Source: a virus
Taxonomy: Duplodnaviria > Heunggongvirae > Uroviricota > Caudoviricetes
Direction: 5' to 3' (one strand)
IMG/VR virus record: IMGVR_UViG_2529292906_000009
Span: 1-64,000 of that record
DNA length: 64,000 nucleotides
In this document: in pieces, positions 19,810 to 20,592 of the stretch
How the letters are laid out: every line of letters begins with the position of its first letter
Numbering within the stretch: the stretch's first letter is position 1
Position numbers and translations under genes: made by a program
Notes under the pieces: model-generated
Seen by the model: only the letters and a program-made list of their open reading frames with translations
Databases searched by the model: none
What the model was told of the DNA's origin: nothing

Positions 19810-19823
19810 AGTGCACCTTGTAT

Positions 19824-19889
19824 ATTGCTCTAATAAAAAACGTGATGAGTGTACATCACGTTTTAAAAATATGGAATTATTAGAGCAAT
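19824..19889. promoter_or_regulatory. pair of C1 operators in inverted orientation (19824-19840 and 19873-19889) flanking palindrome CGTGATGAGTGTACATCACG
   Basis: attgctctaataaaaaa and ggaattattagagcaat read directly; the palindrome sits exactly between them. Confidence 0.55.
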
Positions 19890-19890
19890 A

Positions 19891-20592
19891 TTATTCTGAT
19901 TCTCGCTCAAAAAATGAGCTGATAAGGGGAAGCCAATCCTCTGACACTTCGCGAGGTCGCGGTTTGCCGTGGAAAAAGATTATTCGGCAGTCTTTTGGTA
20001 ATGCCCCATTCCCCCTGGAGTAACGCGCGCTCGCATATTTTGAACCAGGTTCCACAACATCGGCCTTGTAACTTACAAACCATCCTGGATACAGATCCTG
20101 AAATGCTGGTGTATCATCGCCCATAACCTTTCGTAAGAACCCCTGGTCACCCCAACACTCAGTAGTGACACAACGAGAAATCCAACCTTCCGGATCTTGC
20201 CAGAATGAACTCCAGATATGCGCTTTAACACTATTTGGTATCCACAGGGCACCGCTGCCACGATATTGTGGATGGTAAAAATCCCTAAGCATGGTGAAGC
20301 TGGTTGGTGGATGCTCTAGGATTGGGCGTATATCACCGGCAATAACCGTGTCCAAATCCAGATAGAACAGATCATCGGTTATATCCGGTCGGAACAACTC
20401 GATTTTCGCCCACCAGCCACGGCACTTTTGCCACTGGTTGATCAATGGGATAACTTTGACGCCAGGTACATGTAAACACTTCAGGTCTGTCAGGCAAATA
20501 ATTTCATAGTCTTTTGGCAGTTGATTAACCAGCCACTGCACATCGGAAGCGTTATAGTCACCACCAGAGCGAAGAACTAAAGCAATCTTCAT
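19891..20592 (-). CDS. hypothetical protein, possible nucleotide-sugar (GT-A-like) transferase
   Basis: FYLDLDTVI DxD-like motif; weak, inference only. Confidence 0.35.

Follow-up and report, generated by a model that had tools for sequence, protein, structure and literature searches.

The closest described counterpart of the locus analysed here is the pair of C1 operators upstream of pmgR and pmgS in phage P1. In the annotated P1 genome (AF234172), OpmgRa, also called Op86a, is recorded as controlling the expression of pmgR and pmgS, and OpmgRb "corresponds to former Op86b". The record labels each of the two operators as monovalent and carries PpmgR as a predicted sigma-70 promoter. The asymmetric 17-bp consensus of C1 operators is ATTGCTCTAATAAATTT, as quoted in PMC8546580. 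The gene pmgR is essential, and its deletion leaves heads and tails unjoined (PMC9024508). The name 'Op86' was not found in the papers of our literature search, and neither were looping or cooperativity data for Op86a/b, a published termination, start-site or C1-footprint experiment for the site, lysogen or repression data for the pmgR promoter, or a Term-seq, 3'-end or transcription start-site study of P1.

Other C1-controlled promoters of P1 share parts of this arrangement. The operator Obanab (Op72a/b) of the ban operon likewise consists of two inverted 17-bp C1 sites, and here too TTGCTC is the -35 element of the promoter. This P1ban promoter is one that the P1 record does not label as predicted. 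Obanab is bivalent, with its two sites overlapping within 28 bp, whereas OpmgRa and OpmgRb are 32 bp apart with a hairpin between them. The overlapping 17-mers and the imperfect palindrome of about 28 bp by which a bivalent operator is recognised are thus absent from the pmgR pair. More similar in its parts is Op88, also named OpmgT, which has the same module ATTGCTCTAATAA-N4-(T/A)(G/T)ATTTTTAAAAC with a TTGCTC -35 element, a TAAAAC -10 element and a spacing of 17 bp, and which lies directly past the stop codon of the preceding gene, as OpmgRa does. A looser form of this TTGCTC-N17-TAAAAC module follows four other operators. Op88 differs from the pmgR pair in being a single operator. There is a hairpin nearby, but its T-run is on the opposite strand, and it therefore does not provide a terminator on the sense strand that would separate promoter and gene. 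Finally, more than one C1 site also acts on one promoter at the Op99 operators of the c1 gene, where C1 reportedly mediates DNA looping. The conserved span of 64 bp that we describe below for OpmgRa and OpmgRb would fit cooperative binding of this kind, although 49 bp between their centres leave very little room for a loop.

The locus in our window, by which we mean the whole stretch of 64,000 nucleotides that was analysed, has the same sequence, orientation and spacing of the operators and of the predicted PpmgR as P1, and the same flanking genes, pmgQ on one side and pmgR-pmgS on the other (AF234172 / NC_005856). Over the 3 kb around the operator pair, phage P1, P7 and many P1-like phage-plasmids share 99.2-99.3% identity with our sequence, and one 511-bp stretch of the region matches 687 plasmid records. 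Judged by its sequence, the window comes from phage P1 itself or from a very close relative. Both operators and the sequence between them (19824-19889) are base-for-base identical to AF234172. The sole substitution near the operators is at 19823, with A here and C in P1, and it falls within the hypervariable 5 nt outside OpmgRb. In the whole window there are 13 C1-like sites with at most 3 mismatches, compared with 0.30 expected from shuffles. The two operators here each match 14 of the 17 positions of the C1 consensus, the first 13 nt exactly. Their orientation is convergent, and together they make up a perfect inverted repeat of 15 nt (19822-19836 and 19877-19891).

The preliminary description of this stretch had seen two C1 operators in inverted orientation, and consensus match, P1 annotation and sequence identity all bear this out. 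From the alignment to the P1 operator sites, which had been suggested as a check, their identity as OpmgRa and OpmgRb is near certain, and the arrangement is identical to the P1 pair. The operator pair itself is thus already catalogued in the P1 annotation and is a known site, and its value beyond that annotation is small. What the P1 record does not contain is a hairpin or terminator annotation between the operators; the hairpin is described here. The absence of a terminator feature from the record says little, because there is none in all 26 kb of it that we inspected.

All the genes here, pmgQ, pmgR and pmgS, are carried by the minus strand (Table 1), which we refer to as the sense strand. 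The intergenic region between pmgQ and pmgR is 81 bp long. From the stop codon of pmgQ to the start codon of pmgR, and with the two operators in brackets, the sense strand reads TAA-T-[ATTGCTCTAATAATTCC]-ATATTTTTAAAA-CGTGATG-TACACT-CATCACG-[TTTTTTATTAGAGCAAT]-ATAC-AAGGTG-CACT-ATG.

Table 1. Positions in the window of the genes, operators, predicted promoter elements and hairpins discussed in the text.
Feature	Position	Strand	Basis and remarks
pmgQ	19891..20592	-	ORF and P1 annotation; 233 aa; stop codon 19893-19891; last gene of the upstream pmgN-pmgQ unit
C1 operator OpmgRa (former Op86a), ATTGCTCTAATAATTCC	19873..19889	-	Consensus match; protein_bind feature in AF234172; begins 2 nt past the pmgQ stop codon
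Predicted -35 of PpmgR, TTGCTC	19883..19888	-	Transferred from the P1 record (window coordinate = L001 coordinate + 15799); inside OpmgRa
Predicted -10 of PpmgR, TAAAAC	19860..19865	-	P1 record; shares its last base with the start of the hairpin 5' arm
Hairpin CGUGAUG-UACACU-CAUCACG	19841..19860	-	Inverted repeat, fold energy, terminator score, covariation; 5' arm 19860-19854, loop 19853-19848, 3' arm 19847-19841
Loop hexamer TACACT, candidate alternative -10 (TAnnnT-like)	19848..19853	-	Conserved in nine lineages; proposed role as -10
T6 run, proposed terminator U-tract	19835..19840	-	Directly after the hairpin; equals positions 12-17 of OpmgRb
C1 operator OpmgRb (former Op86b), ATTGCTCTAATAAAAAA	19824..19840	+	Consensus match; AF234172 annotation; between promoter/hairpin and the pmgR ribosome-binding site
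pmgR Shine-Dalgarno AAGGTG	19814..19819	-	Read from the sequence; 4 nt upstream of the ATG at 19809
pmgR	19591..19809	-	ORF; 72 aa; 100% identical to P1 PmgR
pmgS	18327..19589	-	ORF and P1 annotation; 420 aa; second gene of the pmgR-pmgS unit
Terminator-like hairpin and T7 after the pmgS stop codon	18281..18305	-	Terminator scan, d=+31.8; stronger than the intergenic hairpin
Operator Op88 / OpmgT	17732..17748		Single operator
Hairpin near Op88	17678..17698		T-run on the strand opposite to the sense strand
Operator Obanab (Op72a/b) of the ban operon	33830..33857		Bivalent

Between the operators lies the 20-mer CGTGATGAGTGTACATCACG, which had been described as a perfect palindrome of 20 bp. We find it to be imperfect, with two perfect arms of 7 bp (CGTGATG and CATCACG) around a centre of 6 nt that does not pair with itself. 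The A4 and T4 flanks lengthen the arms to 11 nt (19837-19847 and 19854-19864). The centre of the hairpin (19850.5) and the centre of the operator pair (19856.5) are 6 bp apart, and the region is therefore not a single concentric palindrome. The motif of the hairpin arm occurs once in the 64-kb window. A search of 19300-20400 with the Rfam 15 covariance models gave no match at E-values up to 1 on either strand.

The hairpin is most likely an ordinary intrinsic terminator of the transcripts that arrive from the upstream pmgN-pmgQ genes. It shares with canonical Rho-independent terminators a G+C-containing stem of 7 bp, a loop of 6 nt, a run of six U that adjoins the stem and a place just past a stop codon, starting 31 nt past that of pmgQ and running in the same direction as this gene. 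For scoring we used a custom scan of the d'Aubenton-Carafa type over the 64 kb together with dinucleotide shuffles. On the minus strand the hairpin has a score of d=+10.7 (stem -8.5 kcal/mol, T score 4.76, tail TTTTTTATT), which is rank 10 among the 16 positive sites of the window. Shuffled windows contain on average 0.9 positive sites, and 0.3 with d=+10.7 or better. The plus strand scores d=-20.7, with the tail TTTTAAAAA, and a terminator on this strand can be ruled out by this score and by its absence in the Cronobacter phage JK004. There are also differences from canonical intrinsic terminators. The stem is modest, with 4 G-C pairs, and the hairpin is flanked by elements of the next promoter, the -10 region on one side and the downstream operator on the other. 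The U-tract is at the same time a tail for repressor binding, and one related lineage has no U-run. Among the operators in the window only OpmgRb has the tail AAAA, where the consensus has ATTT. This departure would be explained by a dual role of the tail as U-tract. A simple built-in terminator scan missed the intergenic hairpin, which we think is because it extended the stem into the A4/T4 flanks and too few T were left in the tail.

For a comparison across lineages, we collected homologous intergenic regions from P1-type viral contigs, a Salmonella plasmid, JK004 and metagenomic contigs with PmgS homologues of 52-71% identity. The distant lineages were gathered via PmgS protein homologues and then the contigs that encode them. 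When genome contigs were searched with PmgS alone, two near-identical Escherichia loci were all that was obtained, and a search of viral contigs with an alignment of four PmgS proteins returned 80 near-identical P1 loci and none that are distant. Both operators are kept in all nine lineages with a C1-type operator, down to a PmgS identity of 52%. Their core-to-core span is exactly 64 bp in every one of the nine, in one of them with compensating 1-nt indels inside. A hairpin is found at the same place in each (9/9), with differing arm sequences. To the P1 form (CGTGATG, loop TACACT, CATCACG) correspond CATGGTG, loop TATCAT and CACCATG in the Salmonella type, CATGGTG, loop TATCAT and CGCCATG in JK004, and GGTGTGGTG, loop TATTAT and CGCCACATC in L208 and L210, the most divergent C1-type lineage. 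In L212 the arms CGGCATG and CATGCCG stand in a register shifted by 4 nt. For the nine lineages RNAalifold predicts 9 pairs, 3 of which have changed on both sides, and 95.5% of the alignment cells are paired; sliding the partner columns lowers this share to 29-68%.

Six of the nine lineages have a positive terminator score, and none has one on the antisense strand. In L208, L210 and L215 the U-tract and the positive score are lost. The hairpin is kept in L208 and L210, where CUUGAUU replaces the U-run (d=-25.6), and L215 has a weakened stem. In view of these cases, the hairpin may have a role other than termination, or one in addition to it. Within P1 itself, none of 108 P1-type viral contigs has a change in the T6 run. 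The minor-allele frequency in these contigs is 0.2-0.9% in stem and loop, and it reaches 10% in the 5 nt that separate OpmgRb from the Shine-Dalgarno sequence. Ten singleton changes are found in the P1-type stem, of which five keep the pairing by wobble and five break it, as expected under neutral drift. One of our alignments (A2) took in hand-picked wobble variants and left out the five stem-breaking singletons. A fair count gives about 7 sense-compatible against 4 antisense-compatible transitions, and we have downgraded the strand asymmetry of the wobble pairs, which might have been taken as proof of an RNA on the sense strand, to an observation that is only suggestive of it.

The candidate promoter elements overlap the hairpin. 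The predicted -10 element TAAAAC does not end in T and is not conserved, as other lineages have TGAAGC, TGCGGC or TAAAGG. The loop hexamer, conserved in 9/9 lineages, reads TACACT, TATCAT or TATTAT, but in most of these lineages it has a poor -35 partner. With either of these -10 candidates the start of pmgR would be at about 19856-19840, i.e. inside or after the hairpin. A transcript that starts within or after the 5' arm does not contain this arm and would thus escape termination. The TTGCTC of OpmgRb could in principle serve a promoter on the plus strand, which is ruled out, as the -10 position there reads AGTGTA.

A promoter in the gap between pmgQ and pmgR is supported by published RNA-seq of P1vir infection (PMC8201110 Table S1). 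At 10 min the values for pmgQ, pmgR and pmgS are 7.05, 9.02 and 9.99 in the wild-type host, and 6.23, 9.00 and 9.09 in the dksA mutant host (PMC8201110 Table S1). These values correspond to a step up of 4- to 8-fold from pmgQ to pmgR and pmgS. The levels of pmgR and pmgS at this time resemble those of other operator-controlled early genes, for example pmgT and dmt. By 30 min pmgQ, pmgR and pmgS all have values of about 10.4-11.7, and no clear transcript drop is visible (PMC8201110 Table S1). The RNA-seq data fit both the presence and the absence of partial termination at the hairpin and neither show nor exclude it. At the other end of pmgS, the terminator-like hairpin after its stop codon makes pmgR-pmgS look like a discrete unit. 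The 10-min values drop from 9.99 for pmgS to 8.45 for pap across this hairpin (PMC8201110 Table S1). In all, pmgR-pmgS appears to be a discrete early unit that is bounded by two terminators.

We propose that the pmgQ-pmgR intergenic region is a compact module of terminator, promoter and operators. OpmgRa and OpmgRb bracket the predicted early sigma-70 promoter of pmgR-pmgS. OpmgRa would cover the -35 region, and OpmgRb would coincide with the transcription start or follow it closely. In the lysogen, C1 on both sites would keep this promoter shut. The hairpin would act as RNA on the minus strand, where the 7-bp stem, the 6-nt loop and UUUUUU are suggested by the comparative data to terminate the pmgN-pmgQ transcripts. 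The U-tract would be encoded by the A-rich tail of OpmgRb, so that the same bases serve operator and terminator. Transcripts initiated at PpmgR would lack the 5' arm and would not be terminated, and a second DNA-binding factor would not be needed. We lean towards this mechanism in full, with some reserve. The idea that an RNA hairpin is integrated with C1 control of the downstream operon, as put forward in the preliminary description, survives in one part. The hairpin is supported as a likely pmgN-pmgQ terminator that overlaps the C1-controlled promoter of pmgR; a regulatory hairpin in the pmgR mRNA is not supported.

What is added to the annotation is, firstly, an explanation of the palindrome: it is probably a terminator on the sense strand, and the AAAA tail of OpmgRb is explained by the U-tract. 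Secondly, pmgR-pmgS, which includes an essential head-completion gene, is seen to be guarded by two operators whose spacing is conserved across divergent P1-like plasmids. This information might be of use in the engineering of P1 phagemids and in predicting the immunity type of P1-like phage-plasmids.

There are other ways to read the hairpin. It might have no structural function at all and be a by-product of the promoter sequence (-10 element and discriminator) and of a spacer whose length is fixed for cooperative C1 binding or looping. The 64-bp span that is invariant in nine lineages and the loop hexamer TAnnnT, conserved like a -10 element, would be expected in this case. The same is true of the stem changes within P1, which look neutral, and of distant lineages that lack a hairpin and in which a -10-like hexamer lies between the paired operators. 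A constraint on length or promoter does not predict, however, that pairing is kept through double substitutions and a register shift. An invariant T6 at odds with the operator consensus and a terminator score on one strand only would not be expected from it either. For these reasons we consider a mere by-product improbable.

We would give about the same low weight to a hairpin in the 5' leader of the pmgR mRNA, with a transcription start upstream of 19860. Such a hairpin could be an attenuator or an element for stability or processing, and the 15-bp operator arms might form a stem that RNase III can cut. The full 66-nt region indeed folds into an interrupted stem of 26 bp with -29.8 kcal/mol and a z-score of -8.8, but the long outer stem consists of the two operators, whose conservation is explained by C1 binding. 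A leader would also fit the weakness of the predicted promoters and the fact that L208 and L210 keep the hairpin without the U-run. On the other hand, the annotated -35/-10 elements and the conserved loop hexamer both set the start inside or after the 5' arm, and we found no convincing promoter upstream in the 3' end of pmgQ. The RNA-seq data furthermore show high early expression of pmgR and pmgS and not attenuation.

Somewhat less probable still, in our view, is an extension or replacement of the terminator role. The tail of OpmgRb supplies the U-tract, and the 5' arm falls within the -10 to +1 region, so that C1 occupancy could set the read-through from pmgN-pmgQ into pmgR in addition to initiation. 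Alternatively, the hairpin could have a role other than termination, such as in processing, stability or the DNA structure of the promoter. If true, such a role would account for the hairpin without a U-run in L208 and L210 and for the fixed spacing of 64 bp.

The least probable reading, to which we give very little weight, is that the inverted repeat is the DNA site of a dimeric second regulator, from phage or host, acting together with C1 at the pmgR promoter: the repeat is symmetric, lies exactly between the operators and is constrained in the P1 population, and the pair changes on both sides would keep the symmetry of a DNA palindrome as well, but the arms differ between lineages (CGTGATG, CATGGTG, GGTGTGGTG) although the cores of the C1 operators are identical, one lineage is in a shifted register and others hold G-T pairs, which are mismatches at the DNA level, and more distant lineages keep the operator pair without a palindrome. 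Known boxes do not fit either. CRP has the consensus TGTGA-N6-TCACA, which is at odds with the spacing GTGA-N10-TCAC found here. The 9-bp -22 box of the late, Lpa-dependent P1 promoters (AAATGACTA/TAGTCATTT, annotated at LP26/LPpmgL) is absent from 19810-19900. The binding site for a second factor that had been suggested earlier is therefore given up, as the arm sequence is unconserved among lineages that share the C1 operators, is unique in the window and fits no known box that we checked.

The question how old the arrangement is can be addressed with two relatives beyond the C1-type lineages, a Citrobacter plasmid whose PmgR has 35% identity and a metagenomic contig whose PmgS has 27% identity, in which we found no C1-consensus sites. 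Directly upstream of the pmgR homologue both have an inverted repeat of 12-15 bp, ...ATACTAATT-N17-20-AATTAGTAT..., with a -10-like hexamer between the two sites and no hairpin. Relatives with paired sites and without a hairpin suggest that the inverted operator layout in front of pmgR is older than the hairpin, which in the sequences compared is specific to the clade with the C1-type operator. In 50 kb of the Citrobacter plasmid there are 14 copies of ATACTAATT, compared with 3 expected, and most of them are in intergenic gaps. ATACTAATT is thus probably the own operator of the Citrobacter element, and paired inverted operators before pmgR would persist even in relatives that use a different operator sequence.

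Six of the 13 C1 operators in the window have, at a constant distance behind them, a T-rich heptamer with TA next to it, and we regard this arrangement, on sequence grounds, as a predicted recurring C1 promoter module. Its -10 hexamers (TAAAAC, TAAAAC, TATGCG, TATGTC, TAAGTG and TAAGTC) lack the usual terminal T. OpmgRa (formerly Op86a), one of the two operators before pmgR-pmgS, and Op88/OpmgT have the module TTGCTC-N17-TAAAAC in common. As the T-run of the G+C-rich hairpin near Op88/OpmgT lies on the plus strand, this hairpin would terminate antisense rather than sense transcription.

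The hairpin after pmgS has a strong terminator score (d'Aubenton-Carafa-type d, positive when terminator-like), and its position coincides with a decrease in transcript level during P1vir infection, pap being 1.5 log2 below pmgS at 10 min (RNA-seq, PMC8201110). PmgS itself has a 480-aa relative, P0002, with 94% identity, a PF00145 match and the label 'DNA cytosine methyltransferase'; this is probably a fusion or mis-called gene in a single E. coli assembly.

In 108 P1-type viral contigs, the stretch between OpmgRb (formerly Op86b) and the pmgR Shine-Dalgarno sequence is hypervariable, with a minor-allele frequency of about 10% vs <1% in the flanks and the variants CTACA, ATACA, TTACA, CTATA, CCATA, CCAAA, CTGCA and TCATA. 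The sole difference between the window and P1 in and around the operator pair also falls here.

Paired operators are found elsewhere in the window, and the overlapping pair corresponds to the bivalent Obanab/Op72ab operator. Two distantly related P1-like elements, the Citrobacter freundii plasmid L218 and the metagenomic contig L216, carry a putative operator motif, (C/A)ATACTAATT, that differs from the C1 type. On L218 it occurs at 14 sites per 50 kb vs 3 expected, mostly intergenic, and in both elements an inverted pair lies directly upstream of the pmgR homologue. The different motif and this inverted pair together suggest that these elements belong to a separate immunity type whose operator layout matches that of P1.

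Coordinates of operators, hairpins and related features (in the window unless another element is named)
Feature	Position	Strand	Remarks
Operators with downstream heptamer-TA module	55-71, 17732-48, 19873-89, 37363-79, 54095-111, 55768-84	-	
Op88/OpmgT operator	17732-17748	-	operator-promoter module
G+C-rich hairpin	17678-17698		T-run on plus strand; ~34 nt downstream of Op88/OpmgT
Terminator-like hairpin TGCTGGTGGAGTGCTCCCACCAGCA, then T7	18281-18305	-	pmgS-pap gap; terminator scan of window, d=+31.8
5-nt stretch, ATACA in window	19819-23	-	
Overlapping inverted operators ATTACACTAATAAATTT and ATTGCTCTAATAAATTT	33830-33857	+ and -	ban operon
Close divergent operator pair	55-71 / 138-154	- / +	consensus-match scan
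Close divergent operator pair	55768-55784 / 55806-55818	- / +	consensus-match scan
Inverted motif pair, L218 (NZ_CP056338.1)	49241-49280		12 other motif sites on L218
Inverted motif pair, L216	2206-2248
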